Made by a program: the position numbers and the translations under genes. DNA of 64,000 nucleotides. It comes from Patescibacteria group bacterium (GTDB taxonomy: Bacteria; Patescibacteriota; Patescibacteriia; UBA9934; GWF2-40-263). The notes under the pieces are model-generated. The model was not told the origin of the DNA. It ran no database searches and saw only the letters and a program-made list of their open reading frames with translations. The stretch is from the NCBI GenBank assembly GCA_041661745.1, contig JBAZTR010000001.1, positions 15,740 through 79,739 of the forward strand, written 5' to 3'. Shown one piece after another: positions 15,683 through 63,933 of the stretch; the first letter of the stretch is position 1, and every line of letters starts with the position of its first letter.

Positions 15683-15685
15683 AAT

Positions 15686-20671: not shown

Positions 20672-20698
20672 CCATCGCTAATTTCAGCGAAGGTTTTT
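20672..20698 (+). terminator. candidate rho-independent terminator
   Basis: ccatcgct-aatttc-agcgaagg is followed by TTTTTAT. Confidence 0.45.
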
Positions 20699-20830
20699 AT
20701 TATCCAAAATATAGTTAGAATCAGGATCACCGTTCTGATACTCTCCGCACACGGATGAAATCTAAAGACTATTACTCACTATTGCATAATAATAATTTTT
20801 GACTTATAAGTGACACAGGAGGTTTGTTTG

Positions 20831-21490: not shown

Positions 21491-21667
21491 CTCGCTCGTC
21501 TTTCAGTTCTTTCTCAGCCGCCACAGTTATTGGTGGTTTTTTATTTACGCGGTTTTTTGGACCGAGGTGGTTAGTTCAAATGTGTCCGTCCATGCGAGCC
21601 AATAAAATTTCTTTGTCCATTGTCTGCTTTTGCGGTACGGGTTATGATTTAATAGTAAAATTTAGGA

Positions 21668-22156: not shown

Positions 22157-22255
22157 ATCAGGTTATTTAGAGTGCAGTCCCCGCATAAGATTTATTGATT
22201 ATAAATTAGAGAATTAACTACAATATAAGAACATAACGTTTTAATAATCAATTAT

Positions 22256-22723: not shown

Positions 22724-22760
22724 ACGACCGGGATTTTGTTGTATCTAAGAAGGTTTATAT

Positions 22761-46513: not shown

Positions 46514-47899
46514 ATGTTTCAGTTTTACAACACCCTTACTCGCCAAAAAGAGGAATTTAAATCCCTCCACGCCGGCCATGCTCGCATTTATACCTGCGGC
46601 CCGACAGTTTATTGGTTTGCGCATATTGGTAATTGGCGTTCGTATATTTTTTCCGATGTTCTGCGTCGAGCTTTGGAACAGAACGGTTTTAATGTTACGC
46701 AGGTCATTAATATTACTGACGTCGGTCATTTAGTCGGCGATGGTGATGAGGGTGAAGACAAAATGATCGTGGCCATGCAGCGTGAAGGAAAATCAGCTTA
46801 CGACATTGCTCGATTTTACGAAGCAGCGTTTATGGCCGATCGTGAAAAATTGAATATCTTGTCGGCCACGGTTTATCCGCGGGCCACTGAACATATTGCT
46901 GAGCAAATTGAGTTGGTTAAGAAACTCGAAGAAAACGGTTTTACTTATAAAACCACTGACGGGATTTATTTTGATACATCAAAGCTGCCAGAATATGGCC
47001 GTTTGTCCGGTCAAAAAGCCGAGGAAAAGCAAGGTGGAGCCCGGGTGGAGTTGGGCAAAAAGAAGAACGCCACAGATTTTGCTTTGTGGAAATTTTCACC
47101 AGCTGATTCGAAGCGTGAAATGGAATGGGAATCACCCTGGGGTGTTGGCTTCCCGGGTTGGCACTTGGAATGTTCAGCCATGTCTAAAAAATATCTAGGT
47201 GTGCCGTTTGATATTCATACCGGTGGGGAAGACCATGTTCCGGTGCATCATGAAAACGAAATCGCGCAAACCATGGGGGCTGACGGTGTGCTCGAAGCGA
47301 ATGTTTGGATGCATAATGCCTTTTTAATGTTTGATGGTGGCAAAATGAGTAAATCGCTAGGAAATATTTATACTTTGGTACAATTGGAAGAAAAGGAAAT
47401 AGAACCTTTGGCTTTCCGTCTCTTTTGTTTGGGCGCGCAATATCGCGCCAAACTTAATTTTACTTTTGAAGCCGCGCAAGCCGCACAAAATGCTCTCAAT
47501 AAACTTCGTGAAACCGTGCGTGATTGGGACGAACCCACTTCTGATATTTGCGAGGAATACAGAAAAAGATTTTCTGAAGCCATTGAAGACGACTTGAACA
47601 CCCCGCAAGCTTTGGCTGTTATGTGGGAGATGATTGGTGATTCTTCTTGTTGTTCCACGGCCGTTAAAGCCGCGACCTTGCTCGAATTCGACAAAATATT
47701 TGGCCTTGATTTGGGTAAATACATTGGAAAGAAAGTTGAAACACCCGACGCGGTTTTGGTTTTATTAAAACAACGAGAAGTAGCTAGAGAAAATAAGGAT
47801 TGGGGTGAAGCCGATCGCTTGCGCGATGAAATTGCCACACTTGGCTTTGTTGTCGAAGATTCTCCACAGGGGCAAAAAATTAAAAGTGTGCTAAAATAA
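46514..47899 (+). CDS. cysS: cysteine--tRNA ligase
   Basis: HIGH-like YTCGPTVYWFAHIGN, KMSKS (KMSKSLGN) and the zinc-binding Cys context typical of CysRS. Confidence 0.92.
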   Translation: MFQFYNTLTRQKEEFKSLHAGHARIYTCGPTVYWFAHIGNWRSYIFSDVLRRALEQNGFNVTQVINITDVGHLVGDGDEGEDKMIVAMQREGKSAYDIARFYEAAFMADREKLNILSATVYPRATEHIAEQIELVKKLEENGFTYKTTDGIYFDTSKLPEYGRLSGQKAEEKQGGARVELGKKKNATDFALWKFSPADSKREMEWESPWGVGFPGWHLECSAMSKKYLGVPFDIHTGGEDHVPVHHENEIAQTMGADGVLEANVWMHNAFLMFDGGKMSKSLGNIYTLVQLEEKEIEPLAFRLFCLGAQYRAKLNFTFEAAQAAQNALNKLRETVRDWDEPTSDICEEYRKRFSEAIEDDLNTPQALAVMWEMIGDSSCCSTAVKAATLLEFDKIFGLDLGKYIGKKVETPDAVLVLLKQREVARENKDWGEADRLRDEIATLGFVVEDSPQGQKIKSVLK

Positions 47900-47905: not shown

Positions 47906-48430
47906 ATGGATTCTCCGTTGGGTAAGGAAGTCAAGAAAGAAAACCCACAAGAATTAATTGGTCCACCGGAGCCGCCAAAAGAGGCGCCGGAAATTGTTGT
48001 ATCCGAAACAAAAGAAGTATCGCCAGTTTTAGAACAACCGAAAGAAACTCCTGTTGCTACTCCCGAGGCTCCATTGCCGCCGCCCCCAGCAGCCGCAACT
48101 TTGGCTGCAGCCTCGGTTCCGCCGGTGGCTAAAGACGAATTTACTCAAGAAATTGAAAGCATTTTGTCCGAAGATTTAACTGATTTGTTTTTGAAAATGA
48201 CCCCCGAGCAGCAGGAGGAATTTCAGGCCAAGGGTGAAGAAACGGCTTCTAAAATTCGTATTATCTTATCATCAGCCAAAGTGGGAATGAAAAAAATCCT
48301 CGTACTTATCAGTGAATGGCTAAAGTTGATTCCCGGGGTCAATAAATTCTTCCTTGAGCAGGAAGCAAAAATAAAAACAGATAAAATCCTTCTTAACGCC
48401 GAAGAATTTCGGAAAGAAGGAAAACTATAA
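47906..48430 (+). CDS. hypothetical Pro-rich protein with C-terminal hydrophobic segment
   Basis: PEPPKEAPEIVV...PEAPLPPPPAAATLAAASVPP, with a 6-nt spacer after cysS. Confidence 0.55.
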   Translation: MDSPLGKEVKKENPQELIGPPEPPKEAPEIVVSETKEVSPVLEQPKETPVATPEAPLPPPPAAATLAAASVPPVAKDEFTQEIESILSEDLTDLFLKMTPEQQEEFQAKGEETASKIRIILSSAKVGMKKILVLISEWLKLIPGVNKFFLEQEAKIKTDKILLNAEEFRKEGKL

Positions 48431-48433
48431 GCC

Positions 48434-51025
48434 ATGTTTCTATCATTGTGGGCGGCCTTTTTGGCCGAAGAAGAGTCAACAATCGCAATACCGGGCGTCG
48501 CGGCATCAAGCGACGGGTTTTTTGCATTGATTATTTTGTCGGTGTTAGTGATTGGCGGATTAGCCTTTGTTGGATTATTAATTGCCCGATTCTTTTTATT
48601 GCGGCGTGTGCATGGGCGGACGGGTGGGTTGGAGTTAGTGGTTTTACAAATTTCTATTCCAAAATTTCGGCGGGCCGAGGAAGCGACTAAGGAGATTAAT
48701 ATCGAACAAATTCGCCAGCAGGTAGCCATAGCCGAATCTTTATTTGCTGCCGTCGGCGGTCTTAAAGCCCAGAAAAAATTTAAGCATTGGTTATTCGGTC
48801 GAACCGATGAAATGGCTTTTGAAATCGTCGCTAAAGATAAAATGATTTATTTTTACGTGGCTATTCCAAAATTTTTACAATCACGACTGGAGGAACAGAT
48901 TTCCGCGGTTTATTCCGATGCTCACTTGGAACAAGTTGAAGATTACAATATTTTTTCGCCCACCGGCACGGTGGCTGGAATGTACCTAACTTTTAAACGA
49001 CCGGTCGGTTTTCCCATTAAGACTTACCAAAAAATGGAGACCGATCCGTTAAACGCCCTAACCAACGCTTTATCAAAAATTGAAGATGGTGAAGGTGTGG
49101 TTATTCAGTATGTGGTTCGCTCGGCACGAGCCAGTTGGCGCAAAAAAGGTTTGGCCGTGGCCAAAAGTTTACAACAAGGGGCTTCGTTTGACGAAGCCAT
49201 GGCCGGCCACACCCCGGGAAAATCTAAAGATGGCTTTTTTTCATTTCTAAAAAATGAACCGACAAAACCACAACAAGAACAATCGTTTAGAGTTTCTTCG
49301 ACAACCGAAGAGGCTATTAAAAGTATTGAACAAAAAGCTAGCAAAGCCGGCATGGACGCCAATATTCGTTTAATTGTCTCCACGCCAAGTCCGGAACGGG
49401 CCGAAGCGACTTTGGCCAACTTGTTTACGGCTTTTTCGCAGTACAGTACCTATCAATTCGGTAACGCTTTTGGTAAAGCTGTGCCACGCAGCAAGGAACG
49501 CATGGTTAGACGGTTTATTTATCGAACTTTTGAAGAGCGTTACAAAGTTGTTTTAAATACGGAGGAAATGGCCAGTTTGTGGCACCTGCCGTTACCGACC
49601 ACCGAAACGCCGAACATTCAGTGGATGGCGGCGCGTCGCGGGGCAGCTCCGTCGGAAATTCCAGGTCCGGCCGAGGAAAATATTTTTCTTGGTAGCAATT
49701 TTTATCGCGGCAAAAAAACGCCAATTTACATTAAAAAAGGTGATCGGCAGCGTCACATGTATTTAATCGGTAAATCTGGTACTGGTAAAACGGAATTCAT
49801 GACTTCCATGATTTTGCAGGATATTAAAAATGGCAGTGGAGTGTGCGTGATTGATCCGCACGGCGATTTGGTTGATCGTATCGCCGGTAGTATTCCCAAA
49901 GAGCGCGTTGATGACGTTATTATTTTCGATCCGGCTGATACCGATCGTCCGGTTGGTTTAAACATGTTGGAAGCCAAGACCGAAGATCAAAAAGATTTCG
50001 TTTGCCAAGAAATGGTTTCTATTTTCTACAAACTTGTTACTGATCCGTCCATGATTGGCCCGATGTTTGAGCATCAAATGCGCAACGTCATGTTGACCTT
50101 AATGGCTGATGAAGAAAATCCCGGCACCTTGGCCGAAATTCCGCGCATGTTTACCGATCAAGAATATGCTGATCAGTGGATCGCCAAATTAAAAGATCCG
50201 ATGGTTCGCAATTTTTGGGATAAAGAAATGGCCAAAACTTCTGATTTTCATAAATCAGAAATGTTGGGTTACTTAATTTCCAAAGTTGGCCGCTTTGTCG
50301 AAAACGAAATGGTCCGTAATATTATCGGCCAGTCGCACAGCAGTTTTGATTTCCGCGAAATCATGGATAACAATAAAATTCTTTTGGTTAAACTTTCCAA
50401 AGGTTTGGTTGGGGAAATTAACGCCAACTTGCTCGGTTTGATTATCGTTTCTAAACTGCAAATGACCGCCCTTGGCCGAGCTAACATGGACGAAAGTCTA
50501 CGCAAAGACTTCTATTTGTACATCGACGAGTTCCAAAACTTTGTCACCAATTCCATTGCCACTATTTTGTCTGAGGCTCGCAAATATCGTTTGTGTCTGG
50601 TCATGGCTCACCAGTATTTGAACCAGTTGGTTGATAACCAGGGCAAAGCCGAGGTGCGCGACGCTGTGCTTGGTAACGTTGGCACAACCTTTGTCGCTCG
50701 CGTTGGACCGGAAGACACGGAGATTTTACAAAAAATATACGAACCGTATTTTTCCGGTTATGATTTGATTAACTCGGAAAAGTTTACCTGGTACACCAAA
50801 ATGATTGTCGATAACACGGCTGTAAAACCTTTCACACTCTCGACTTTTAACAAGAACCTACCCAGAGGTAACCCTGAATTGAAAAAAGCTATATTTGAAC
50901 TTTCACGGCTCAAATATGGTCGCGACAAGGCTTTGGTTAATGCGGAAATCATGGAGCGTGCCAATTTGGGTGGCGCAAATTCGCCCGAAGCTGACTTGAA
51001 TCCGGTTGGCGAATCAGCCTTATAA
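48434..51025 (+). CDS. membrane-anchored P-loop ATPase of the TraG/VirD4/TraD (type IV coupling protein) - FtsK/HerA superfamily
   Basis: Two N-terminal TM helices, Walker A MYLIGKSGTGKTEFM and Walker B FYLYIDEFQNF (DEF-type, as in T4CPs). 863 aa. Confidence 0.65.
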   Translation: MFLSLWAAFLAEEESTIAIPGVAASSDGFFALIILSVLVIGGLAFVGLLIARFFLLRRVHGRTGGLELVVLQISIPKFRRAEEATKEINIEQIRQQVAIAESLFAAVGGLKAQKKFKHWLFGRTDEMAFEIVAKDKMIYFYVAIPKFLQSRLEEQISAVYSDAHLEQVEDYNIFSPTGTVAGMYLTFKRPVGFPIKTYQKMETDPLNALTNALSKIEDGEGVVIQYVVRSARASWRKKGLAVAKSLQQGASFDEAMAGHTPGKSKDGFFSFLKNEPTKPQQEQSFRVSSTTEEAIKSIEQKASKAGMDANIRLIVSTPSPERAEATLANLFTAFSQYSTYQFGNAFGKAVPRSKERMVRRFIYRTFEERYKVVLNTEEMASLWHLPLPTTETPNIQWMAARRGAAPSEIPGPAEENIFLGSNFYRGKKTPIYIKKGDRQRHMYLIGKSGTGKTEFMTSMILQDIKNGSGVCVIDPHGDLVDRIAGSIPKERVDDVIIFDPADTDRPVGLNMLEAKTEDQKDFVCQEMVSIFYKLVTDPSMIGPMFEHQMRNVMLTLMADEENPGTLAEIPRMFTDQEYADQWIAKLKDPMVRNFWDKEMAKTSDFHKSEMLGYLISKVGRFVENEMVRNIIGQSHSSFDFREIMDNNKILLVKLSKGLVGEINANLLGLIIVSKLQMTALGRANMDESLRKDFYLYIDEFQNFVTNSIATILSEARKYRLCLVMAHQYLNQLVDNQGKAEVRDAVLGNVGTTFVARVGPEDTEILQKIYEPYFSGYDLINSEKFTWYTKMIVDNTAVKPFTLSTFNKNLPRGNPELKKAIFELSRLKYGRDKALVNAEIMERANLGGANSPEADLNPVGESAL

Positions 51026-51040
51026 AACAAAAACAAAATT

Positions 51041-51658
51041 ATGAACGACGACGAATTGTTGGAAGATGATTTTAGTTTCGAGCCAGAACCGGAGGAAGCG
51101 CCGCGTAAAAGCGAACCTGACCCGCGTCTGGCTTTGGCAAAAAAGATTTTAAAGCAACTCCACGAAAATTTGGGGAATGTTATTGACTTACTCGATGGAG
51201 GAAATATCGAGGAAGCGAACACTGATTTTGCCAAACTGGTGGCTTCAAAAAAAGAAGCCGAGCATACACTTGATGATATTTCCGGATCCCGCGTAATTGA
51301 AGGCGTCTTTGATGGCCAAGCCATGATTGGTTCTGATGGCAAAAGTTATGCTGTACCGCCCAACTATGCCTCCAAATCTCGCCTGGTTGAGGGTGACATG
51401 TTAAAACTCACCATTAAACGCGATGGTACTTTCTTGTTTAAACAAATTGGCCCCATCGAACGCGCTCGTTTGGTAGGCAAGTTGGCTTTTGATGCCTCGG
51501 TTGGAACATTTGTCGCCATGATCGGCGAACAAAATTATAAACTTATAACAGCCAGTGTCACCTTTTTTCACGGTGAACCGGGCGACGAAATTGTCGTTTT
51601 GGTTCCGAAAAATACGCCCAGCGTTTGGGCAGCCGTGGAGAACGTGGTGAAGAAATAA
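51041..51658 (+). CDS. hypothetical protein (acidic N-terminus)
   Basis: 205-aa ORF in the same operon. No motif recognised. Confidence 0.55.
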   Translation: MNDDELLEDDFSFEPEPEEAPRKSEPDPRLALAKKILKQLHENLGNVIDLLDGGNIEEANTDFAKLVASKKEAEHTLDDISGSRVIEGVFDGQAMIGSDGKSYAVPPNYASKSRLVEGDMLKLTIKRDGTFLFKQIGPIERARLVGKLAFDASVGTFVAMIGEQNYKLITASVTFFHGEPGDEIVVLVPKNTPSVWAAVENVVKK

Positions 51659-51679
51659 TTTTTTTATTATACTAACGTC

Positions 51680-54600
51680 GTGTGTATGTATTGGACTAAT
51701 AATTTTAAGAAAATATCATTGTACACGGGTTTGTTTTTATTTTCATTCTCGCTGTTTTTTTTGGTTTGGAATGTCGCTTATGGAGCCAGTCCTGTTACGG
51801 ATTTTGTGCATTTTGACGGAGACGCCTCGGACAATTGGGCGGGCTTTAGTTCAGAGATGATGGATTTCAACAACGATGGAAACGATGACCTTGTTATTGG
51901 TGTAATTTCTGAAGGGACGGTAGGTGCGGAAGTTGGAGCAATTTATATCATCTATGGGGATGGTTCGACCTGGACATCGATGTCAATAGCGGATGCGGAT
52001 GTAAAAATTACCGGGGCGACAGATTCAAATGGGATTGCCTATATGGGGAAAGAAATTATTAATGCCGGCGACGTGGATGGAGATGGAATAGATGATTTAC
52101 TTTTTGGGGCTGAACGAGGAGAAGGAAATAGTATTTTAGATAACGGGCTTGCCTTTTTAGTCTATGGCGGGCAAGGTTTGAGTGGAACGTATAGTGCAAA
52201 CAATATTGGCACAACGATCGCCGGCGCGACATTCTATGGAACAGTCGCACAGGAACAGGCCGGCTCACGATTGTCTGCAGGTGATTTTAACAATGATGGG
52301 TACAATGATCTTTTGGTGAGCGGTATCCTTTATGCCACCGGATTGGCCCAACGAGGTGCAGGATATTTGATTTACGGGGATGATACACGTTTGAGTGGCA
52401 CGAACGCATTGTCAAATGTCGGGGGCTCCATTGCCGGGGTTACTTTTGTTGGAGCCGCGGCCGGAGATCGACTTGGGAAAGGGGTTCGCATGATTGATGT
52501 TGATGGGGATGGCTATGATGATGTGCTTGTGAGTGCAACACTTGCACATTATGGTGGAATCGCAGACGTTGGGGTGACTTATCTCATTTATGGCAACCAA
52601 ACGTTAGTGAGTCCGGTGGATGTTTCAAATGTTGGCGGAAGTGTGACTGGGGCATCATTTTATGGAGAAGTCTTAAATGATTCCTCGGGAAACGATATCA
52701 TGGGCGGATTTTTCAACGAGGATGCTTATGGCGATTTTAGTATTTTTGCAAATGCGGCTGACAACGGAGCTATTAGCAATGTAGGCGTGAACTATTTGAT
52801 CTTCGGGGCCGCGACGCGTTTTACAGGAGCAAATGCGCTAAGTGGCGTGGGTACCACCATTTCAGGATTGAAATTCGTGGGCGAAGGGGAAAGCGATCGG
52901 TTTGGAAATTATTTTACGTCCGCAGATATCAATAATGATGGACTGAAAGAGTATATTGTGACCGCAACATCCAATGATAATGGCGGGGCAATTACGGATA
53001 GTTATGGAGCAATGTACATTGTTTATCGCAATCAGGTGCTTACAAGCCCCATCCTTGCCTCAACCATCGGGACAACGGTAAGCGGAGTAAAATTTGTTGG
53101 AGAAGAGTTAGGCGGGCTTTTGGGGTTTGATGTGACAAATATTGGAGACGAAAACGGCGACCATTATGAGGATGTTTTGGTGGGCGCGTATAAGGTAGAT
53201 GTTGGTGCTTATACAGATGCCGGTAAGGTCTATTTGGCCTATTTTTATATTGACGCGGATCACGACGGTTATCCGGGCACCGCGGGAGTTTTTGATGGTA
53301 CGGATAAGGATGACGCCGATCCGCTTGTACTTGATAGTTGGCATCCGACGATTACAGGCGTCAGTGGGGTTGAGGCAACGGACGGAGGTGGGGAAGTGAC
53401 GGTCACATTTACATTGGATGACCCGGACAATGACGATAATTGCCAAGCAAAAATTGAATACAGTATTGATGGAGGTTCAACTTGGAGTGATCCGACAATA
53501 AGCACCACGAATAGTGATACCACGGCCACCTATGGTGATCCGGACATTGATAATTCGGCCACGTATCAAGTGGGAAAGGCTGGAGCGTATATCACTACCT
53601 CTTCTGGAGCCAACACCGTGGTTGTTAAATGGAATTCGTTGGTCGATGTTCCCACGGCTAATGTTTCAAATGCGCAAATCCGTGTGACTCCTTATGACAG
53701 TCATGCCCCGGGCACTGCGGTCGCGTCTTCGAATTTTATTTTAGATAACGTTGACCCGGCCAGTCTTGCTTCTCTAGCCTACGGCACGTCCACTTACAAT
53801 ACTCTCTCCGTTACCTGGACGGCTGCCACTGATACCAATTTTGACCACTACGAACTTTGGTATGGGACAAACCAAAGTGATGTTGATAGTCTCACCGGCA
53901 CGGCCGCGGAATGGGATAATAGTGATGATGCGGCACTGACCACAGCCACCACAGCTGTCACGACAATTACTAACCTTTCTTCGTTTACAACCTATTACTT
54001 TAAAATATTTGCCATCGATGATTACGGAAACGAATCAACTTTAAGCTCTGTTAGTGCGCGGACGACCAAGAAGGGTTCATCGAGCGGCAGCGGTTCAATC
54101 ACGCCAGCTCAATTGTCAAACTTCGCCGTGATTCAAAAGAACTTTCCTACAGCTACAACCATAAAGACTGGCGAAGCGACCAGCTTCTCTTGGTTGTCAA
54201 CTAAGATCGGCTATTTAATCAATCTTTGGTATTCCCTGGACAATGGGGAAACCTATATAAAAATTGTCGGGCCGGCCGCTGACACCGAAACCTACGAGTG
54301 GACCACACCTAGTAATCTTTCCGGCACTAAAATTATTTTTAAATTGGAGTTAACTGACTCAATAGTAATTCTCGATACCGAGATCACAGAGTTTTCTATT
54401 TTTACGGAAGCAATCGAAGAGGATGTTCAAGAAGAGATAAGTATCATTGGTGCGGTGCTAGAAAGTGTCTTCGGCGGCCGCTGGGAAATTAATCTCGAAG
54501 AATCAGGTATTACCGAAGTTTTCGGCGACTTTCCGGAAACAGTTTCCATTGGTTCACTCATCAAACTGCCTGATGATGGCGACCTCACCACTCAATTCGA

Positions 54601-54952
54601 TTCTGCCGTTTACTACGTCGGGGTCGATAAACGTCGCCACGCCTTTCCCAATGAATCTGTCTATAAAACCTGGTTTCCCGACTTCTACGACATCAGAACC
54701 GTTGATCAAACCACTATGGCCAGTATTCCTTTGGGACCAATGGTGACTTATCGTCCCGGTTCAACCTTGGTTAAATTTCCTTCAGTTCCTAAAGTTTATT
54801 CCATTGATTCCACCGGCTGCCTTCACTGGCTAACCTCAAGGGAACTAGCTATCGACATGTATGGCACAGACTGGGCCGAGATTGTCAAAGACGTTTCCGA
54901 AGCCTTCTGGTCCAGTTACTGTTTCGGTGATGATCTGGTTGCCTCGCGATAA
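51680..54952 (+). CDS. large secreted surface protein with FG-GAP/integrin-alpha-type beta-propeller repeats, Fn3/Ig-like middle, and conserved about 175-aa C-terminal domain
   Basis: Signal/TM at the N-terminus. FG-GAP Ca-binding loops: DFNNDGNDDLVIG, GDVDGDGIDDLLFG, GDFNNDGYNDLLVSG, IDVDGDGYDDVLVSA, ADINNDGLKEYIVTA and IGDENGDHYEDVLVGA. The C-terminal domain is shared with the downstream giant protein. Confidence 0.8.
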   Translation: MCMYWTNNFKKISLYTGLFLFSFSLFFLVWNVAYGASPVTDFVHFDGDASDNWAGFSSEMMDFNNDGNDDLVIGVISEGTVGAEVGAIYIIYGDGSTWTSMSIADADVKITGATDSNGIAYMGKEIINAGDVDGDGIDDLLFGAERGEGNSILDNGLAFLVYGGQGLSGTYSANNIGTTIAGATFYGTVAQEQAGSRLSAGDFNNDGYNDLLVSGILYATGLAQRGAGYLIYGDDTRLSGTNALSNVGGSIAGVTFVGAAAGDRLGKGVRMIDVDGDGYDDVLVSATLAHYGGIADVGVTYLIYGNQTLVSPVDVSNVGGSVTGASFYGEVLNDSSGNDIMGGFFNEDAYGDFSIFANAADNGAISNVGVNYLIFGAATRFTGANALSGVGTTISGLKFVGEGESDRFGNYFTSADINNDGLKEYIVTATSNDNGGAITDSYGAMYIVYRNQVLTSPILASTIGTTVSGVKFVGEELGGLLGFDVTNIGDENGDHYEDVLVGAYKVDVGAYTDAGKVYLAYFYIDADHDGYPGTAGVFDGTDKDDADPLVLDSWHPTITGVSGVEATDGGGEVTVTFTLDDPDNDDNCQAKIEYSIDGGSTWSDPTISTTNSDTTATYGDPDIDNSATYQVGKAGAYITTSSGANTVVVKWNSLVDVPTANVSNAQIRVTPYDSHAPGTAVASSNFILDNVDPASLASLAYGTSTYNTLSVTWTAATDTNFDHYELWYGTNQSDVDSLTGTAAEWDNSDDAALTTATTAVTTITNLSSFTTYYFKIFAIDDYGNESTLSSVSARTTKKGSSSGSGSITPAQLSNFAVIQKNFPTATTIKTGEATSFSWLSTKIGYLINLWYSLDNGETYIKIVGPAADTETYEWTTPSNLSGTKIIFKLELTDSIVILDTEITEFSIFTEAIEEDVQEEISIIGAVLESVFGGRWEINLEESGITEVFGDFPETVSIGSLIKLPDDGDLTTQFDSAVYYVGVDKRRHAFPNESVYKTWFPDFYDIRTVDQTTMASIPLGPMVTYRPGSTLVKFPSVPKVYSIDSTGCLHWLTSRELAIDMYGTDWAEIVKDVSEAFWSSYCFGDDLVASR
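54425..54949 (+). repeat. copy 1 of dispersed about 525-bp repeat encoding shared C-terminal domain (copy 2 at 63297..63821)
   Basis: Copy 1 reads ...KLPDDGDLTTQFDSAVYYVGVDKRRHAFPNESVYKTWF...GCLHWLTSRELAIDMYGTDWAEIVKDVSEAFWSSYCFGDDLVA. Copy 2 reads ...KLPDDGDPTTQFDSAVYYIGLDKRRHAFPNEQVYKSWF...GCLRWLTSEELAIDMYGPDWARIVKDVSEAFWSSYCFGDDLVA. Confidence 0.75.
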
Positions 54953-54970
54953 TAACAAACATACAAATAA

Positions 54971-54999
54971 ACACCCGGGAATTTCGGGTGTTTTTGTTT
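54971..54999 (+). terminator. rho-independent terminator
   Basis: acacccg-ggaattt-cgggtgt is followed by TTTTGTTTG. Confidence 0.6.
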
Positions 55000-55052
55000 G
55001 TGGATAAACTCAGAAGTTTTTTCTGTTTTGTGCTAAAATAGAATCAAATTTT

Positions 55053-58000
55053 ATGGCGCTAAAAAGGAATAATCCTAATTGGATAAACCGATTTTTTTCG
55101 GTTAGTTTTTTGTTTATTGTGGCTCTCTTGTTTTTCAGAGCCAGCCCGACTCTTGCTGCGGCTGTCTCTTGGGACAGTGGTGGGGCCAACAATGATTGGG
55201 AAACCGCAGCCAACTGGTCAGGCGACGCTGTGCCGACCGATGCTGATGACGTAACGATTGATTACGCTGAAACAATTAATATCAATGCAACGACGACGAT
55301 TAATTCTTTGACCGTTGGCGGCACAAACGCGACAGTTTTGAATTTTGATTACGATGCGCTGACTGCGGGAGCACTTATTATCGACGCCGGGGCTTTGACT
55401 GTGGCGGCGAACGGAACGATTACTCATACAGCTGGTTCAACAACCTCGGTGCTTGGCTCAGTTTATATTGATGTACAAACTGGAGGTGCCACAATCACAG
55501 GAACAATTAATGTGGACGCAAAAGGATACACAGAGGGATATGGGACAGGTGTCGGAGGAAATAACTTTTCCGGAGGAGGATTTGGTGGTGAGGGCGGCCG
55601 AGGGGAAAGCGGAACAAGCGGTACAACCTATGGCTCAATCACAGCACCGGTTAGTTTGGGTAGCGGTGGAAACTCATATTGTGGCGCTTCGTCAGGGCAT
55701 GGAGCTGGTGCCGTTCGATTGCATGTCGCTGGGGAACTTAGCGTGGCTGGCAGTATTTCAGCCGTCGGAGGCGATGGCACTGCCTGGTGTGCTGGCGCCG
55801 GTTCAGGTGGGTCGATTTATTTGGATGCAGGAACAATTTCAGGGGCCGGAACAATTTCTGTAAATGGAGGAGCAGACACAAACGGAGAATTACGAGGCGG
55901 TCATGGGGGTGGGGGTCGCGTTGCCATGTATTACGACACAAAAACCTATTCAGGAGGTTTAACCGCATATACGGGATCCTTCGGGAGTAACACTTATTAT
56001 GGTGGGGCTGGAACAATTTACGTTAAGGATAACGCACAGCCCAATGGTGATTTAACAATCGATAATAATTCAAAGGACAATACCACGAGCGATACGGCGA
56101 TTGGAAAGACAAATCTTTCCACCGCGACCTATAAAACGCTTACGATTTCCAATGATGGTCACATCGATATCCAGTCTGGACAGACACTTACCTATACGAC
56201 GCTCACCTGGACCGGTGGAAACATAACAGATAGCGGAGGAACGCTAAATACCGTAACGACCGGGGATGTTGTGATCCCAGCGAGTTCCTATTTCTATGCC
56301 AATGGGAATTATACTGGAGCCAGTGCTTGGACGACATTGCTCGTGAACGGGGTGCTCACACATTCAAACAATGTGAACCTAGCAACATATGATTTGGATG
56401 TAGAGACGACCAGCACGGCAGAAATTGCTGCAGGCGGTTCAATTGATGTTTCCGGTCGGGGTTTTACAAAAGGGAATGGAACCGGCACTGGTAGTGGACA
56501 AGGTGCTGCGGGTGGGCATGGTGGCCAGGGCGGACCAGGTGATGGAACAGGTGGAGGAGTTTATGGTTCCATTACAGCCCCAATTACGCTTGGGAGCGGT
56601 GGAAATAGCAGCTGCGGAAGCGGTGGGCAAGGGGGTGGGGCAGTGAAATTAACTATTGGCACGACATTGACCGTGACGGGAGACATTCTTGCTTCTGGGA
56701 GCAATGCAAGCAACGATTGGTGTTCCGCAGCTGGTGCTGGGGGGTCAATTTATTTGGATGTTACAACAATGGCGGGCGCAGGGGCGATGACTGCTGGTGG
56801 TGGAAATGCAGTAAATGGGGAGCTTCGAGCTGGGGGCGGAGGTGGAGGACGAATCGCATATTATTACGATTCTTCAACTTATTCGGGCACGGTAACTGCA
56901 TATGGTGGATATCAGGCATCGAATTACTATATCGGGGCGGCAGGAACGATTTATGAAAAAGATAACGATGACGCGAATGGTGATTTAAAAATTGATAATA
57001 ATAGCCACGATAATGCAACGTACGATGCATGGCTTGCGCGAACCCCACTTACCCCAACAAGCACTCCTCTTTCTCTGACAGTAGATTCACTCACCCTCTC
57101 CAACGATGGCCACCTATTACTCACCGCAGATACTACCATCGATTACACCACAATTTCCTGGACCGGAGGGAATATTACGGATCGTGGAGGTGTCATGAAT
57201 GATTTGCTGGGTAGCAGTGTTGACATGACCATTCCAACCGGATCAATGTTTTATGCAGATTACGCGCGCACGTTAAATAGTTTGACGGTCGATGGAACTC
57301 TTACACACTCGCAAAATTATTCCACGGCAACATATCGCATGAATTTGACCGTTACCACGGACATGACGATTTCTGCTTCGGGTTCCGTAACTGCTTACGG
57401 GAAGGGTTTTGTGGGTCAGCAAGGGAATGCGACGGGAAAAGGATACAGTACAAACTCTGGTGCGGGATATGGAGGGCAAGGGTATGGGGTGAACACTTCT
57501 TACGGAAACGTCTATGGATCAATTACTGCTCCAACAGATTTGGGAAGTGGTGGAGGAAGCTATATTGGTTGGGCAACGGATGCGAAAACGCTTTACGGTG
57601 GTGGTGCTATCCAACTTACTGTCGGGGGCGAACTAGATGTTTCAGGGTCGATAAATGTCAATGCGTTCACGGGGAGCACGATCTATTGTGATGGAGCCGG
57701 TCAGGGATCCGGCGGGTCAATTTATCTTGATGCCGGCACGCTTTCCGGAGCCGGTTCAATGACAGCGAATGGAGGAATCCCATGTCATGCCAATGGTGGG
57801 GGCGGTGGCGGTGGTCGTATTGCAATTCATTACACCACAAATTCTTCGACACTAGTACCGACAGCATATGGTGGGTGGATCACGGGCGGTGTTAGATTTG
57901 GTGGTGCTGGAACAGTTTATTGGAACGATAAAGATGGCACCGACAATTTAGTGATTGATAATAATAGCCACGATTATACCAGTTCAGTAATTGGATATAA

Positions 58001-61000
58001 CCGCGGTAGAACCGTTCTTACAAACAGTGGAACTCCCGCATCTTTTACTTTTGATACCGTTACCATTTCTAACAGCGGCGACCTTTTATTAAATTCGGAT
58101 ACAACAATTATTTCAACAACAAATACCTGGACTGGCGGAGATATTACCGACCAAGGAGGTACGTGGAATTCATTGTTGACGAATCTTGTTATTCCTACCG
58201 GGGCAAGATTTTATGCAGACACAACAAGAAGTGTTACTTCGGTTGTTGTAAACGGCACAATGACCCATTCATTAAATTCCACAGCGGAAACATACAAAAT
58301 AGATTTCACAACAACCGGAGATTTTACTATCGGAGCGACTGGTACAGTGAATGTTGATGGCTATGGATTTACAGGGCGATATGGGACTGGTGCCGGGGTC
58401 GACGCCGGAACCTATGGATCTGGTGGTGGATACGGAGGTCGCGGTGGTGCAACATCTGATGGCGGGGATACCGGCGGTGCTACCTATGGTTCGGCAACAG
58501 CGCCAACCAATATTGGATCAGGCGGAAGTGGAAATAATGGAACAACAACCGGTGGAAAATCCGGCGGCGGTGCCATTAAGTTAACAGTTGGTGGAAATTT
58601 AGCAGTTGGTGGAGAAATTACCGCTGATGGTGGAACGGAAATGACCTTTGGAAATTCTTGGGAAAACTGGGGCGGCGGTTCTGGCGGATCAGTGTGGTTA
58701 GACATAGTGGGAACACTGTCCGGTACAGCAAATATTACCGCTGATGGTTCCGGAGGGAAGACTGCGGGTGATGGCGCCGGTGGCGGTGGACGTATTTATA
58801 TTACTTGTTCAGCCGATTCACATTCGGGATCAATGAGTGTTATTACCGGTACGGTTGGTATAGCGGGTGGAGGTGGAACCGCGACACTAGTTTTAGAAAC
58901 TCCTCCAACATCTCCAACAATTTCCAACCCTCTTAGTAATTCTTATAACAATAGTTTAACTCCGACCATTACCGGTTCTACTTATGTTTCCGATGTTGCC
59001 CACGTTTCAACTGATTGGAAAGTTGTGGCGTCTTCGGATACTTGTTCAAGCACTGCTGTTTGGGAATCAGAACACGATGCTGTTAATTTAACTTCCATTA
59101 CCGTCGGAGTAGCTCTAACTGCCAGCACAACATATAAGGCATGTGTACGTTATACCAATAGTTTTGGTGATAGCAGCTGGTCTACCGCTATAACTTTTAC
59201 AACTCAATTCGGTGGAACTAGTAACAGTACTACTTGGGATTTTGATGAGGGCGTTGTCGCCGACAATTATGATTTTAATGATATTTATGTTGAGTTGGAT
59301 GCTTCGGGGAATAGTTTAGCCAGACTAAAAGATTTGGGAGCTGGGGTTTATAGAGGGGCTCAATATCCCGGTTATGCTAAGCGCAAAGAAATTACCATTA
59401 CCAATACCACAGCTACGGAGTTAACTAACTATCAGGTTAAGCTCAATGTTTTGTATGACTCCGACATGCAGGCAGATTTCGATGATATTAGGTTTGCTTC
59501 GTCTGACGGATCAACATCAATTGATTTTTGGTTAGAAAGTAAAACCGATTCATCAAAAGCAATCGTGTGGGTTGAGGTGCCAACCATAGGGGCTTCCACT
59601 ACTGCTACGATTTACATGTATTACGGAAACACAAGTGTAAGCAGTGCCAGTAATGGCGCGAATACATTTGATTTTTTTGATGATTTTGAAAGTTACGCCG
59701 TAGATTCAAACATCAATGGTCAGGGAAGTTGGGTTGCTTCTGTTATTGGTGGCAGCGGCGAGGCAAAGGTAAGGAGCGTAAATAGCAGAAACCATTTAAG
59801 AGTTTCTTCTACTAGTACTGGTAGTGCAATTTACAATACATTGATTGGATCAAAAACCGTTTCATCTACACTGGGGTATGCCATTGAATCCTATGTTTCG
59901 CCAGCCGCAGTTGGGGAATGTACAACATATTTCTTTGGAAACACTACAACGATTGGTCCTGATAACGTCGGTCCGAATGATGGGCATGGGGCGTTTTGGA
60001 TTGGTAATGGAGGAACGCCTTGGTCGTGGGTTCGTTCTCACGTTTCCGGAGTACGTGTCGATGGCACATACAATAAAGGCGATACCGCAAGCGTTGGGAC
60101 TTACTATCGTTATACATTCAAGTGGCTAGGTACAAGTTTAAATGCCCTTAAGGACGGGAAAGCAACGTTTTCAACCACTTCTTCAGCCTTTTCCGGGTTT
60201 ACCAATATTTGGGTTGGCACATATAATCCTGCTTCTTGGAACCATGACTGGATTCTTGTAAGAAAGATAACATCTTCTGATCCTGCGATTGCTTGGGGTA
60301 ATGAAGCTAGCACAGTGTTATTGGATTGGAACTATCGCCAGGCTTTTAGTGTTTTTAACGAGACTGCTTCGGAATTAACAAATTTTCAGGTCAAAATAAA
60401 TGTTCCATATAATTCCTCAATGCAAACTGATTTTGACGATGTTCGCTTTGCCTCATCCGACGGTACCACGTTGCTTGACTATTGGTTAGAAACAAAAACA
60501 GATTCTTCTGTTGCCACGTTCTGGGTGGAAATTCCAACAATCGGTGCCTCTTCTTCTACAAATATTTATCTTTATTATGGGAATAGTGGGGCAAGCAGCG
60601 TAAGCAATGGTACAAATACTTTCGATTTTTTTGATGATTTTAGTGGAGATTTGAGTAAATGGACTGCTATCGGTTCGTTTGACACAACGGGCGGCACATT
60701 GAACTTTGTGAGCGGAGCTAGTTGTAGTTCTTCGTTTTGTTTCTTGTTGGCAGATACAGCATCGATGTTTTCTGATTATGTGATGGATTACAGTATGTAT
60801 TACGCCCCAGCTCTTGATAACGGCGCTATTCACCGTTCTCAATCAAAAGTTAACGCCGACAATACGTACGCCACGATTAAAAGGCATGTTCCCAACAACC
60901 ACTATTTTCATCGTCGGGTAGCGACGGCTTGGGGCGCGGCCATAAATGAATTAGCTTATACATACACCGACAATGTTTGGATGTATATGCAGGAAACATT

Positions 61001-63824
61001 TGCTGGTTCGACTCTTAGTACAAGATTTTTTTCTGATCAAGCGAGGACAAATTTAGCAACCTATAATTCTTGGACAGAAGCCTCTTGGGGCACTGGATAC
61101 GTTGGAATTTATAATTATTCAACTTCAACCGGCGTTAAATGGGATGATTTTAGAATTCGCAAATATGCCGCTACCGAACCAACCGTTGTTCCAGGCGGTG
61201 TTGAAAGTGTTGCGTCTTTTGATGAGATTTCTGTTGCTCCTTCCACAGCCGGCACTCACCCCATATACAACGAACTCTATGGTCTCGGGGCCACCACCGG
61301 AACAGTGGAAGGATCAATTGGTTATACTGTTTCTAACAATGGTACCAACTGGTACTATCACAACGGTTCGGCCTGGGTCGCTGTGACAACCGAAACCTCT
61401 CAGTACAACACTCTTGCTCAAGTTGATGCATACCTATATGACTTCACCTCAGAAATCGGCGATGGTGAATTCTATTTCAAAGCTTTCCTTATTTCCGACA
61501 CCACCCAAGAAGTTGAACTCAACAGCCTCACCCTGACATACATTGGTATGCCCACGGTTAACTGGACCACCGCCAGCCAATCTGGTGCAGAAGACGCCGG
61601 CGGCCTGACGGTCACGGCTTCGCTTTCTTTTTCATACGCTCTTGATGTCACGATTCCGTACACAGTGACCGGTACGGCCACTGGTTCGGGAACAGACTAT
61701 TCCATCACGGCCAGTCCGCTGGTTGTCACAGCCGGCAGCACCACCGGCAATGTCACCATCACCGTGACCAATGATGTTATCGATGAACTGGACGAAACCG
61801 TGGTTGTCACCATGGGTTCACTGACTAATGGTATTAAAGGGGCCACTGATGTTCACACCGCTACCATCACCGATAACGATGCCGCCCCAACCATTGCCGT
61901 GGCTGATGTTTCTGTTGCTGAAAACGCCGGTCCGGGTACGGTCACGGTCACCATGACCGGTGGTTCATACCTCGGCACCTCGGTTAACTATGCCACCTCT
62001 GACGGCACAGCTCTTGATGGCACTGACTACACCGCCACCTCCGGCACCCTGACCTGGGCGGCTGACGCCACCGGTGACAAGACCTTCACTATCACTCTCT
62101 CTGATGACACCTTGGACGAAGATGATGAAACAGTCACCATCACTCTTTCCGTTCCGGTTAACGCCACGATTTCTGACACCACCGGAGCTTTAACCATCAC
62201 TGACAATGATGATCCCCCGACCATTACTTTCGATAGCAACACTGCCTCTGGTTCTGAAGCAACGTCTCCAGCCGCTTTTAACGTTTCATTATCTGCCGCT
62301 TCCGGTCGAACAATTACCGCCACCTGTGCCACGCACGCCATCACGGCCACGGCCGGTACTGACTACACGGCAATTTCCTCAACCTTAACCTTTAGTCCCG
62401 GTGATACTTCTAAAACCGTTAACATCACCATCAGCAATGACGCTTTGGACGAAAACAACGAAACCTTTAGTCTTCATCTTAACGACTACTCCAACGTCAC
62501 AGCCGGCACCTATACTGCCGATACCTATACCATCACCGACAACGACGATCCGCCAACCGTTTCCTGGACCACTTCCTCTCAATCCGTGACCGAAGACGCC
62601 ACCACGGCCACCATCACTGCCGAACTTAGTGCTGCCTCTGGTCTAACTGTCACTATTCCATACACCATGACCGGCACAGCCACCGGCAGCAGTACTGACT
62701 ACACCATCACCGCCAGCCCCGTGACCATCTCGGCTGGTTCAACCACCACCGATGTCACGGTCACTATTATCGAAGACGCTGTGGTGGAAACCGATGAAAC
62801 CGTCATCACCACCATTGGTTCACCGACCAATGCTTCGACCGGGGCCACCACAGTCCATACCTTAACCATTGCCAACGATGATCGTCGAAGCAAACCAACT
62901 CCATCCACCGGTGACACAACCCCCAGCACAATTAACCTAACCTCGCCAACCGATAACGAACAACTAATCGCCGGTTCCTTTAAAACCATCACCTGGTCTT
63001 CCACCGGCACCTTTGGTTTCGTTAACCTGGCCTATTCCACTGACGGCGGAGTCTCCTATCAAACAATTGAAGACAACTTAGTCAACTCCGGCTCTTATTA
63101 TTGGTCTATTCCCAACCAATCTGTCACCAACGGCTTCATCAGAATCGAAGGCACTGATCTCGCCTCTATCCTAACCTCTGACATAATTCCGTTCACCACG
63201 TTTGTCACGACCACACCAATCGATGAGGAAACTCCGGCCGAAGAAATCCCCACCGAAGAGGAAGCCGCCGAACAAATAAGTCTTATCGGTATGGCACTAG
63301 AGAGTGTTCTTGGTGACCGCTGGATCAACGAAGCGGAAAAGAACGGGGTCTGGGAAATCTTCCCGGATCTTCCGGAAGAAGTTTCCATTGGCACTCTGGT
63401 TAAACTGCCTGATGATGGCGACCCGACCACCCAATTCGATTCCGCTGTCTATTACATCGGCCTCGACAAGCGCCGTCACGCTTTCCCTAACGAACAGGTA
63501 TACAAATCTTGGTTCTCCACTTTCTATGGCATCAAGACCATCGACTCAGTCACTATGTCCAACATTCCACTCGGCCCCATGGTGACTTATCGTCCGGGTT
63601 CAACTCTAATTAAATTTCCTTCCATTACCAAAGTCTATTCCATTGATTCCGAAGGCTGTCTCCGCTGGTTAACCTCGGAAGAACTAGCCATCGACATGTA
63701 CGGTCCAGACTGGGCCAGAATCGTCAAAGACGTCTCCGAAGCCTTCTGGTCCAGCTATTGCTTTGGTGACGACCTCGTCGCTGCCAATGATCAAGATTGG
63801 GATACGGTGATTGCCTCGCAATAA
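55053..63824 (+). CDS. giant (2923 aa) secreted surface protein: repeated Gly-rich parallel beta-helix modules, 2x DUF2341/LamG-like jellyroll domains, about 5x Calx-beta domains, Ig-like domain and conserved C-terminal domain
   Basis: Signal peptide MALKRNNPNWINRFFSVSFLFIVALLFFRASPTLAAA. About 4 repeats of roughly 300 aa (GYTEGYGTG...GSITAPVSLGSGGNSYCG...GGSIYLDAGTISGAG...GGGGRVAMYYD...DLTIDNNS). DUF2341-like domains NYQVKLNVLYDSDMQADFDDIRFASSDGS...DFWLE appear twice. Calx-beta units TVTASLS...DVTIPYTVTGTATGSGTDYS...NDVIDELDETVVVT appear about 5 times. Confidence 0.85.
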   Translation: MALKRNNPNWINRFFSVSFLFIVALLFFRASPTLAAAVSWDSGGANNDWETAANWSGDAVPTDADDVTIDYAETININATTTINSLTVGGTNATVLNFDYDALTAGALIIDAGALTVAANGTITHTAGSTTSVLGSVYIDVQTGGATITGTINVDAKGYTEGYGTGVGGNNFSGGGFGGEGGRGESGTSGTTYGSITAPVSLGSGGNSYCGASSGHGAGAVRLHVAGELSVAGSISAVGGDGTAWCAGAGSGGSIYLDAGTISGAGTISVNGGADTNGELRGGHGGGGRVAMYYDTKTYSGGLTAYTGSFGSNTYYGGAGTIYVKDNAQPNGDLTIDNNSKDNTTSDTAIGKTNLSTATYKTLTISNDGHIDIQSGQTLTYTTLTWTGGNITDSGGTLNTVTTGDVVIPASSYFYANGNYTGASAWTTLLVNGVLTHSNNVNLATYDLDVETTSTAEIAAGGSIDVSGRGFTKGNGTGTGSGQGAAGGHGGQGGPGDGTGGGVYGSITAPITLGSGGNSSCGSGGQGGGAVKLTIGTTLTVTGDILASGSNASNDWCSAAGAGGSIYLDVTTMAGAGAMTAGGGNAVNGELRAGGGGGGRIAYYYDSSTYSGTVTAYGGYQASNYYIGAAGTIYEKDNDDANGDLKIDNNSHDNATYDAWLARTPLTPTSTPLSLTVDSLTLSNDGHLLLTADTTIDYTTISWTGGNITDRGGVMNDLLGSSVDMTIPTGSMFYADYARTLNSLTVDGTLTHSQNYSTATYRMNLTVTTDMTISASGSVTAYGKGFVGQQGNATGKGYSTNSGAGYGGQGYGVNTSYGNVYGSITAPTDLGSGGGSYIGWATDAKTLYGGGAIQLTVGGELDVSGSINVNAFTGSTIYCDGAGQGSGGSIYLDAGTLSGAGSMTANGGIPCHANGGGGGGGRIAIHYTTNSSTLVPTAYGGWITGGVRFGGAGTVYWNDKDGTDNLVIDNNSHDYTSSVIGYNRGRTVLTNSGTPASFTFDTVTISNSGDLLLNSDTTIISTTNTWTGGDITDQGGTWNSLLTNLVIPTGARFYADTTRSVTSVVVNGTMTHSLNSTAETYKIDFTTTGDFTIGATGTVNVDGYGFTGRYGTGAGVDAGTYGSGGGYGGRGGATSDGGDTGGATYGSATAPTNIGSGGSGNNGTTTGGKSGGGAIKLTVGGNLAVGGEITADGGTEMTFGNSWENWGGGSGGSVWLDIVGTLSGTANITADGSGGKTAGDGAGGGGRIYITCSADSHSGSMSVITGTVGIAGGGGTATLVLETPPTSPTISNPLSNSYNNSLTPTITGSTYVSDVAHVSTDWKVVASSDTCSSTAVWESEHDAVNLTSITVGVALTASTTYKACVRYTNSFGDSSWSTAITFTTQFGGTSNSTTWDFDEGVVADNYDFNDIYVELDASGNSLARLKDLGAGVYRGAQYPGYAKRKEITITNTTATELTNYQVKLNVLYDSDMQADFDDIRFASSDGSTSIDFWLESKTDSSKAIVWVEVPTIGASTTATIYMYYGNTSVSSASNGANTFDFFDDFESYAVDSNINGQGSWVASVIGGSGEAKVRSVNSRNHLRVSSTSTGSAIYNTLIGSKTVSSTLGYAIESYVSPAAVGECTTYFFGNTTTIGPDNVGPNDGHGAFWIGNGGTPWSWVRSHVSGVRVDGTYNKGDTASVGTYYRYTFKWLGTSLNALKDGKATFSTTSSAFSGFTNIWVGTYNPASWNHDWILVRKITSSDPAIAWGNEASTVLLDWNYRQAFSVFNETASELTNFQVKINVPYNSSMQTDFDDVRFASSDGTTLLDYWLETKTDSSVATFWVEIPTIGASSSTNIYLYYGNSGASSVSNGTNTFDFFDDFSGDLSKWTAIGSFDTTGGTLNFVSGASCSSSFCFLLADTASMFSDYVMDYSMYYAPALDNGAIHRSQSKVNADNTYATIKRHVPNNHYFHRRVATAWGAAINELAYTYTDNVWMYMQETFAGSTLSTRFFSDQARTNLATYNSWTEASWGTGYVGIYNYSTSTGVKWDDFRIRKYAATEPTVVPGGVESVASFDEISVAPSTAGTHPIYNELYGLGATTGTVEGSIGYTVSNNGTNWYYHNGSAWVAVTTETSQYNTLAQVDAYLYDFTSEIGDGEFYFKAFLISDTTQEVELNSLTLTYIGMPTVNWTTASQSGAEDAGGLTVTASLSFSYALDVTIPYTVTGTATGSGTDYSITASPLVVTAGSTTGNVTITVTNDVIDELDETVVVTMGSLTNGIKGATDVHTATITDNDAAPTIAVADVSVAENAGPGTVTVTMTGGSYLGTSVNYATSDGTALDGTDYTATSGTLTWAADATGDKTFTITLSDDTLDEDDETVTITLSVPVNATISDTTGALTITDNDDPPTITFDSNTASGSEATSPAAFNVSLSAASGRTITATCATHAITATAGTDYTAISSTLTFSPGDTSKTVNITISNDALDENNETFSLHLNDYSNVTAGTYTADTYTITDNDDPPTVSWTTSSQSVTEDATTATITAELSAASGLTVTIPYTMTGTATGSSTDYTITASPVTISAGSTTTDVTVTIIEDAVVETDETVITTIGSPTNASTGATTVHTLTIANDDRRSKPTPSTGDTTPSTINLTSPTDNEQLIAGSFKTITWSSTGTFGFVNLAYSTDGGVSYQTIEDNLVNSGSYYWSIPNQSVTNGFIRIEGTDLASILTSDIIPFTTFVTTTPIDEETPAEEIPTEEEAAEQISLIGMALESVLGDRWINEAEKNGVWEIFPDLPEEVSIGTLVKLPDDGDPTTQFDSAVYYIGLDKRRHAFPNEQVYKSWFSTFYGIKTIDSVTMSNIPLGPMVTYRPGSTLIKFPSITKVYSIDSEGCLRWLTSEELAIDMYGPDWARIVKDVSEAFWSSYCFGDDLVAANDQDWDTVIASQ
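63297..63821 (+). repeat. copy 2 of dispersed about 525-bp repeat (shared C-terminal domain)
   Basis: See copy 1. The identity is about 80% nt by eye, and a similar terminator follows. Confidence 0.75.
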
Positions 63825-63842
63825 AAACAAATAGACAAAAAA

Positions 63843-63870
63843 CACTCGGGTTCCCGAGTGTTTTTGTTTT
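63843..63870 (+). terminator. rho-independent terminator
   Basis: cactcggg-ttc-ccgagtg is followed by TTTTTGTTTT. Confidence 0.6.
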
Positions 63871-63933
63871 CCCTTTAATCCCCCTTCACCCCCTTTCACC
63901 CCTTCACCCCCTTTGATACAATAGGGCCACAAT

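Follow-up and report, generated by a model that had tools for sequence, protein, structure and literature searches.

A 64-kb stretch of a Patescibacteria contig (the window, whose positions serve as coordinates throughout) encodes a large membrane-anchored ATPase a short distance upstream of two giant surface-protein genes. The locus raises the question of whether the ATPase is the motor that exports or assembles these giants or has a role independent of them. An earlier note on this DNA favored the first possibility and described a coupling-protein-like ATPase co-transcribed with giant adhesin-like proteins. The results presented here show that the 863-residue ATPase is a member of a Patescibacteria-wide, vertically inherited orphan family related to the type IV coupling proteins (T4CPs), that the giant genes are a recent lineage-specific insertion, and that the juxtaposition of the two is incidental. 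The explanation as a whole, namely a vertically inherited T4CP-like ATPase that acts as a membrane-anchored translocase and resides in a conserved gene array next to which giants were inserted, is supported with good confidence.

Sequence and structure of the ATPase

The ATPase gene (48434–51025, + strand) carries both nucleotide-binding motifs that had been read from its translation, Walker A (GKSGTGKT, residues 446–453, nucleotides 49769–49792) and a DEF-type Walker B (YIDEFQNF, within FYLYIDEFQNF at residues 693–703; YIDEF at 696–700, nucleotides 50516–50533). The two N-terminal transmembrane helices described in the earlier note were reduced to one, as hydropathy gave a single hydrophobic segment (residues ~29–56) and the AlphaFold model a single long helix (residues 27–63, nucleotides 48512–48622, + strand) followed by a basic RRVHGR. 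Three T4CP profiles matched residues ~420–767 above their Pfam gathering cut-offs, namely PF10412 (E 9e-15; 54.8 bits, cut-off 20.5), PF02534 (5e-12; 45.8 bits, cut-off 20.1), and PF12696 (6.5e-7; 29.8 bits, cut-off 22). The T4CP-like identity was thus upheld, and the protein was not placed in an unrelated family. DUF87 matched only partially (residues 424–521) and the NCBIfam matches to TraD, VirD4, and TrbC were all sub-threshold. The best PDB sequence matches by profile search were TrwB and DotL, and hhalign aligned the family profile with TrwB at 95.6% probability (E 1e-8) across both Walker motifs. Residues K452, D698, E699, R716, and Q727 were invariant in an alignment of 58 sequences with 35–87% identity to the query, and R716 and Q727 align with R375 and Q386 of TrwB.

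The AlphaFold model (predicted local distance difference test, pLDDT, 85.6; predicted template-modeling score, pTM, 0.75) has four parts: the transmembrane helix, an alpha/beta N-terminal domain (residues 68–385), a RecA-like ATPase (residues 415–843), and an all-helical insert (residues 517–645). The N-terminal domain corresponds to PF26449 (DUF8128; residues ~64–412, nucleotides 48623–49669, + strand), is confidently folded in the model, and is predicted to be cytoplasmic; precomputed matches to this family exist on the exact protein and on all 120 of its best 120 homologues. The nucleotide-binding domain with its insert is encoded at 49676–50962 (+ strand). Foldseek searches of the model against PDB returned, over its C-terminal half, TrwB (target-normalized TM-score 0.62–0.66, E ~1e-12) as well as Cagbeta, DotL, and HerA; by the same score, HerA and FtsK-like structures ranked below the T4CPs. 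Full-length chains of VirB4/TrwK reached the lowest Foldseek E-values (7e-16) in alignments of ~930 columns. VirB4 (TrwK) resembles the window protein in size (~800 residues) and in having a large N-terminal domain followed by a C-terminal RecA-like ATPase. However, the global TM-score of that alignment was ~0.31 with a root-mean-square deviation of 15 Å, an hhalign comparison of the family profile with TrwK/VirB4 covered the P-loop region alone (probability 10%), the VirB4 Pfam family did not match the 863-residue protein, and NCBIfam VirB4_plasma covered only residues 433–476; the likeness of the N-terminal domain to VirB4 is therefore unproven. Neither the FtsK/SpoIIIE combination (PF01580 with alpha and gamma domains) nor the HAS-barrel of HerA was found in the protein, and PADLOC returned only generic P-loop matches (HerA, mad8, and DndH) without defense-system context. 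By Pfam, by hhalign to TrwB, and by Foldseek, the C-terminal half of the protein (residues ~415–843) is a T4CP-type ATPase domain.

TrwB of R388, VirD4, Cagbeta, and DotL have in common with the window ATPase the nucleotide-binding domain with its all-alpha insert, Walker A, a DEF-type Walker B, RK and HQ motifs after Walker B, and an N-terminal membrane anchor. They and the window ATPase alike have a small accessory gene directly upstream. The small open reading frame (ORF) that adjoins trwB in R388, 1 nucleotide away, encodes TrwA, and CagZ is the small accessory protein of Cagbeta (8dol). Unlike the window ATPase, canonical T4CPs have two transmembrane helices placed just before the ATPase, whereas here a single helix is separated from it by the ~350-residue DUF8128 domain. 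The window ATPase also differs from them in having no relaxase or type IV secretion system (T4SS) genes as neighbors, in its vertical inheritance, and in its housekeeping context.

Conserved gene array and small neighboring proteins

The ATPase gene lies in a row of same-strand genes that begins with cysS (46514–47899, +; ORF call, precomputed annotation, and synteny), continues with a 174-residue ORF (47906–48430, +; start 47918 and 170 residues in the source gene call), the ATPase, and a 205-residue ORF (51041–51658, +), and runs on into the two giant genes. The spacers from cysS through to the second giant are 6, 3, 15, 21, and 100 nucleotides, the gap between the 174-residue ORF and the ATPase being 3. 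The ORFs, their coordinates, the small hypothetical proteins on either side of the ATPase, and the short spacers given in the earlier note were all borne out by ORF calls. The window and flanking contig are of housekeeping character, with genes for DnaG, RpoD, DnaB, RecR, GreA, RNase J, LepA, RecJ, RNase H, CysS, and DnaX in addition to a sortase, a P-type ATPase, and a MacB-type ABC system, and the guanine-plus-cytosine (GC) content of the ATPase locus is the same as that of its flanks. Family scans of the larger ORFs found no relaxase, VirB4, VirB6, or VirB8 in the window, as the earlier note had said, nor in ~30 kb of further contig beyond it.

The context of the gene was compared in a species scan with one genome per species, which gave at least 600 matches to the ATPase; loci were drawn from the best 80 (39–77% identity), which span many Patescibacteria classes and of which 79 could be scored, and their ORFs were called and then clustered across species. 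The conserved array consists of cysS, a small ORF, the ATPase, the 205-residue protein, and dnaX. The 174-residue family occupies the position immediately upstream of the ATPase in 35 of the other loci, and nearly all the remaining loci have there a + strand ORF of 110–200 residues with a low-complexity N-terminus that belongs to other sequence families. The 205-residue family is found downstream of the ATPase in 38–40 loci, dnaX in 38–41, and cysS upstream in 33. No T4SS genes lie within ~10 kb at the 79 loci, and the ATPase has no conserved T4SS neighbor. Together with the vertically conserved housekeeping context, this agrees with the earlier note that the locus is not an ordinary conjugative element.

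The N-terminal half of the 174-residue protein is rich in proline and glutamate and looks disordered, whereas its C-terminal ~85 residues are conserved around the motif WLKxIPGVNxFFLEQEAKIKTDKI; the protein has no match in Pfam, NCBIfam, PDB sequences, or PADLOC. The 205-residue family comprises 5,758 unannotated homologues, and searches of Pfam, NCBIfam, and PDB sequences gave it no significant match. Its acidic tail contains a conserved FEPEP, and a strongly conserved motif reads EGVFDG..MIGSDGK.Y.VPPNYASKSRLVEGD.LKL. Its structural model (pLDDT 81.7) shows a helical hairpin (residues 28–80) and two barrels (residues 84–203) resembling the oligonucleotide/oligosaccharide-binding (OB) fold. 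Foldseek gave weak but consistent matches to the cold-shock domains of RNase R/II and Unr, the double-OB of Mpa/ARC, IF1, and Rho, with a best E of 4e-4. From alignment, model, and Foldseek the protein is predicted to consist of a helical hairpin and a tandem OB-fold. It recalls the coiled-coil plus double-OB ring of Mpa/ARC/PAN and the tandem cold-shock/S1 domains of RNase R/II, at weak scores (E 4e-4 to 0.1); unlike in those systems, it is a separate polypeptide that is not fused to an ATPase.

The giant surface-protein genes as an insertion

The first giant gene (51680–54952, +; 51686 as start in the source call) encodes a protein of 1090 residues with FG-GAP and fn3 domains, and the second (55053–63824, +) a protein of 2923 residues with DUF2341 and Calx-beta domains (Pfam). 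Both products have classical N-terminal Sec-type signal peptides, which imply Sec export of both. A C-terminal domain of ~340 residues is common to the two at 50% identity (residues 749–1090 of the FG-GAP protein, nucleotides 53924–54949; residues 2574–2912 of the 2923-residue protein, nucleotides 62772–63788); it has no Pfam match, and neither giant has LPXTG. The 100-nucleotide spacer between the two genes contains, 3' of the FG-GAP gene, a strong intrinsic-terminator-like hairpin with a T-run (54969–54993, +) and then a TGcTAAAAT −10-like box. Co-transcription of the ATPase with the giants, claimed in the earlier note, can therefore apply at best to the FG-GAP gene, which starts 21 nucleotides after the 205-residue gene with no terminator between them. 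A near-identical terminator-like hairpin (63838–63865, +) lies 3' of the 2923-residue gene. Next come C-rich repeats and the TACAAT box of dnaX, which on the source contig is the gene directly after the 2923-residue gene, starting at ~63934 and extending past the window end. The C-rich repeats and −10 box upstream of dnaX are common to the window and its relative of 87% identity; these short repeats (CCCCCTT[C/A]AC-like) occupy 63866–63915, just 5' of the dnaX box, and 13400–13450 in the locus of that relative (L084).

No homologue of either giant was found at the ATPase loci of the 79 other species. ORFs of at least 1000 residues occur within ~10 kb at 14 of the 79, in scattered positions, and at only one locus is such an ORF among the first three genes downstream of the ATPase on its strand. 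The L084 locus has the order recJ, rnhA, NYN, cysS, a 175-residue ORF, the ATPase, the 205-residue gene, and dnaX, and no giants. A second relative (L093, 80% identity) also has no giants and carries one extra gene of 185 residues between the 205-residue gene and dnaX, and a third (L086, 75% identity) has two unrelated genes of 508 and 587 residues in the same place. Since dnaX follows the giants in the window and the slot before it varies in the relatives, the 12-kb giant block (51680–63824) is a recent lineage-specific insertion between the 205-residue gene and dnaX. Neither a conserved synteny with cargo genes nor a cargo without Sec signals, as would mark a dedicated secretion machine, was found. 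The synteny of ATPase and giants across the 79 loci showed no conserved pairing, and the proposal that the ATPase exports or assembles the giants is not supported in view of this result, the insertion, and the signal peptides.

Distribution of the family and its two paralogue clades

Among 3,035 Patescibacteria genomes, Quinonero-Coronel et al. have found 2,918 with VirD4-type T4CP homologues (5,713 in all), 2,417 with VirB4, and only 103 with relaxases (2025, PMC12102498). Only 148 of the 5,713 homologues lay near virB4, and the authors noted that T4CP genes are often far from virB4 in other systems too. They described the Southlakia homologue as non-essential and possibly exapted (PMC12102498). 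Orphan T4CP homologues of Patescibacteria are thus already published, and the window ATPase, with PF26449 and PF10412, belongs to the same family; like 5,565 of the 5,713 it is chromosomal, far from virB4, and without a relaxase. What is added here is the division of the family, handled as one set in PMC12102498, into two paralogue clades, of which clade A probably corresponds to SEML1_0141/0142 of Southlakia, and a neighboring protein with a predicted helical hairpin and tandem OB-fold.

The family comprises more than 7800 proteins. The species-level matches cover Uhrbacteria, Magasanikbacteria, Kerfeldbacteria, Doudnabacteria, Paceibacteria, Gottesmanbacteria, Levybacteria, Moranibacteria, Kazanbacteria, and Peregrinibacteria. 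The DUF8128 domain alone matched 1751 clusters at 50% identity, at the N-terminus in every one; most of these proteins have ~800–860 residues and a few reach 1,045–2,006. Long clade-A variants of 1,116–2,006 residues with large C-terminal extensions were observed (P0204, P0209, P0246, P0253, P0259, and P0270; L090 10001–13351), and the extension of P0229 is of low complexity and rich in Pro, Ser, and Glu. Many records of metagenome-assembled genomes (among L008–L081) that carry this Patescibacteria-specific gene are titled "uncultured Gammaproteobacteria," "Saccharibacteria," or "Bdellovibrionales"; these titles appear unreliable, and the loci titled "Saccharibacteria" match Paceibacteria proteins best.

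A neighbor-joining tree of 125 family members set clade B (L069_par949, L067_par, P0262, P0239, and P0245) apart from the rest. The window protein falls in clade A, together with L091_852, the group of long proteins around P0229, and every main gene of the species-scan loci that was placed in the tree. In many genomes the clade-B paralogue, a second DUF8128-T4CP gene, lies within 10 kb of the clade-A gene (L069 1232–6528; L091 5558–13237; L067; L050; L064).

Wang et al. list two such proteins of Southlakia epibionticum ML1 (2023, PMC10633639). SEML1_0293 (921 residues; PF10412, PF12696, and PF01935) lies directly after a gene with Sigma70_r4 and HARE-HTH domains and is non-essential, its normalized reads falling from 5817 to 2940 and 1372 over the time points (PMC10633639 Tables S1 and S2). 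SEML1_0142 (1019 residues, no Pfam match, P-loop domain at 381–800) is essential, as is SEML1_0141 (139 residues), which lies 12 nucleotides before it; gyrB-gyrA follows SEML1_0142 (PMC10633639). In clade B, P0262 immediately follows a Sigma70_r4/HARE-HTH gene, and so does the paralogue in L091; this is the arrangement of SEML1_0294/0293 in Southlakia. In clade A, P0229 is preceded by a 136-residue ORF and followed by gyrB-gyrA, which matches the order around SEML1_0141/0142. By gene order and elimination, rather than by comparison with Southlakia sequences, the clade of the window protein is probably that of the essential pair SEML1_0141/0142. The non-essential Southlakia homologue cited in PMC12102498 would then be a different one from the counterpart of the window gene, which by synteny appears to be SEML1_0142 and not SEML1_0293. 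The possibility that the ATPase takes the place of FtsK was rejected, as Southlakia has a separate, essential, bona fide FtsK; an essential FtsK and a dispensable comEC argue against simple FtsK-like or competence roles.

Function of the ATPase and competing explanations

By analogy with TrwB and VirD4, the ATPase would assemble into a hexamer anchored in the membrane and work as an NTP-driven translocase or as a receptor for substrates. The 174-residue upstream protein may be its accessory or regulator, as TrwA is for TrwB and CagZ for Cagbeta, and the hairpin and double-OB protein could be an adaptor that binds nucleic acids or a cap that forms a ring. DNA or nucleoprotein, or a substrate of the chromosomal patescibacterial T4SS encoded elsewhere, is more likely to be what the ATPase acts on than the neighboring giants. 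Four observations weigh against parts of this explanation. The single predicted transmembrane helix and the large domain between membrane and ATPase depart from canonical T4CPs, and the mechanism may differ accordingly. Iteration with hidden Markov models did not unite the small upstream ORFs of different classes by detectable homology. The 205-residue gene shows roughly the same linkage to dnaX as to the ATPase and may belong to replication instead: it directly follows the ATPase in 22 of 38 loci, is directly followed by dnaX in 18 of 38, and separates from each in other loci. A distant locus (L091) has the OB homologue after a clade-A ATPase with no dnaX nearby, and the 205-residue protein is plausibly, though not firmly, linked to the ATPase. 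Finally, with only 21 nucleotides and no terminator before the FG-GAP gene, transcriptional read-through into it is possible in this genome.

Among the more specific readings of the translocase, the ATPase is possibly, though doubtfully, a bona fide coupling protein of a chromosomal patescibacterial T4SS, encoded far from virB4 and recruiting protein or DNA substrates. Its ATPase domain is that of a T4CP in sequence and structure, distance from virB4 is common for T4CP genes elsewhere (PMC12102498), and the Southlakia T4SS cluster has no recognizable coupling protein. On the other hand, T4CP homologues occur without VirB4 in at least 500 genomes, neither the membrane anchor nor DUF8128 is canonical, and none of the 79 loci has T4SS genes nearby. 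A T4SS-independent role is a tentative and rather unlikely alternative, in which the clade-A ATPase, its small disordered partner, and in many lineages the coiled-coil/double-OB protein would form an essential, phylum-wide housekeeping machine, unrelated to the VirB4 system, that acts at the envelope or on the chromosome and translocates DNA or nucleoprotein. Such a system, SEML1_0141/0142 in Southlakia, would have been overlooked, since published work took the non-essential SEML1_0293 to be the one patescibacterial T4CP. It is consistent with T4CP homologues being more widespread than VirB4 (96% versus 80% of genomes) and with how few of them, 148 of 5,713, lie near virB4. The conserved housekeeping and replication context (cysS and dnaX, or gyrB-gyrA in L090), the OB-fold-like neighbor, which in L091 keeps its place behind the ATPase independently of dnaX, and the apparent match of the essential Southlakia pair to clade A and of SEML1_0293 to clade B also point in this direction. 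Against it stand a Southlakia orthology drawn from gene order and elimination rather than from sequences, an OB assignment based on weak Foldseek scores, the ability of tiny genomes to keep gene neighborhoods without a functional link, and the fact that FtsK is essential and comEC deletion viable in Southlakia, which leaves no obvious DNA-handling role vacant.

The reading proposed in the earlier note, in which the ATPase would be a non-conjugative motor dedicated to exporting or assembling the FG-GAP and DUF2341/Calx-beta giants, is very improbable. The genes are adjacent and on the same strand, the FG-GAP gene follows closely without a terminator, and giant surface proteins abound in Patescibacteria, which live as episymbionts; set against this are the 79 loci and the two closest relatives without these giants, the single locus with a large ORF within three genes downstream, the position of dnaX after the giants, the Sec-type signal peptides, and the terminator and promoter-like box before the 2923-residue gene. 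A remnant of an integrated conjugative or mobilizable element, of which T4CP-type ATPases are typical and to which a tRNA-adjacent low-GC island elsewhere in the window might hint, is hardly credible and was rejected, as relaxase, integrase, VirB, and other mating-pair genes were not found nearby, the GC content is that of the flanks, and the reading is contradicted by a cysS-dnaX position conserved across classes and a tree that follows taxonomy.

Other features of the window

A tRNA gene at 10128–10199, the only match in an Rfam scan of the window, is followed up to 17131 by a block of low GC content (0.34–0.37 vs ~0.44 elsewhere). The block contains genes for a GIY-YIG protein, a 1285-residue protein with a weak nSTAND NTPase match (11825–15682), a DUF5677-like protein of 289 residues, and a protein of 187 residues, and the region 10128–17131 looks like a tRNA-adjacent acquired or defense island. 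The GC content peaks at 0.57 at 24912–26240 (− strand) in a class-V aminotransferase/cysteine-desulfurase gene that may be horizontally acquired. The high-GC block at 24–30 kb is not explained by ribosomal RNA, as it gave no Rfam match of that kind and contains protein-coding genes. For the protein encoded at 26365–28134 (− strand), no database record with that start codon was found. An envelope and redox cluster at 19020–23261 comprises a sortase, a PsbP-like protein, hemerythrin, an AhpC/TSA peroxiredoxin, and a small leucine-rich-repeat protein (22761–23261).

Implications for Patescibacteria

Export of adhesins by the ATPase would have implied a new secretion route in episymbiotic bacteria, and the evidence removes that implication. 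The evidence leaves a nearly universal ATPase of Patescibacteria, T4CP homologues occurring in a larger share of genomes than VirB4, and its small upstream partner and OB-fold neighbor are conserved and equally unstudied. Should the clade of the window protein prove to be essential in the one patescibacterium amenable to genetics, it would offer a concrete and testable target.

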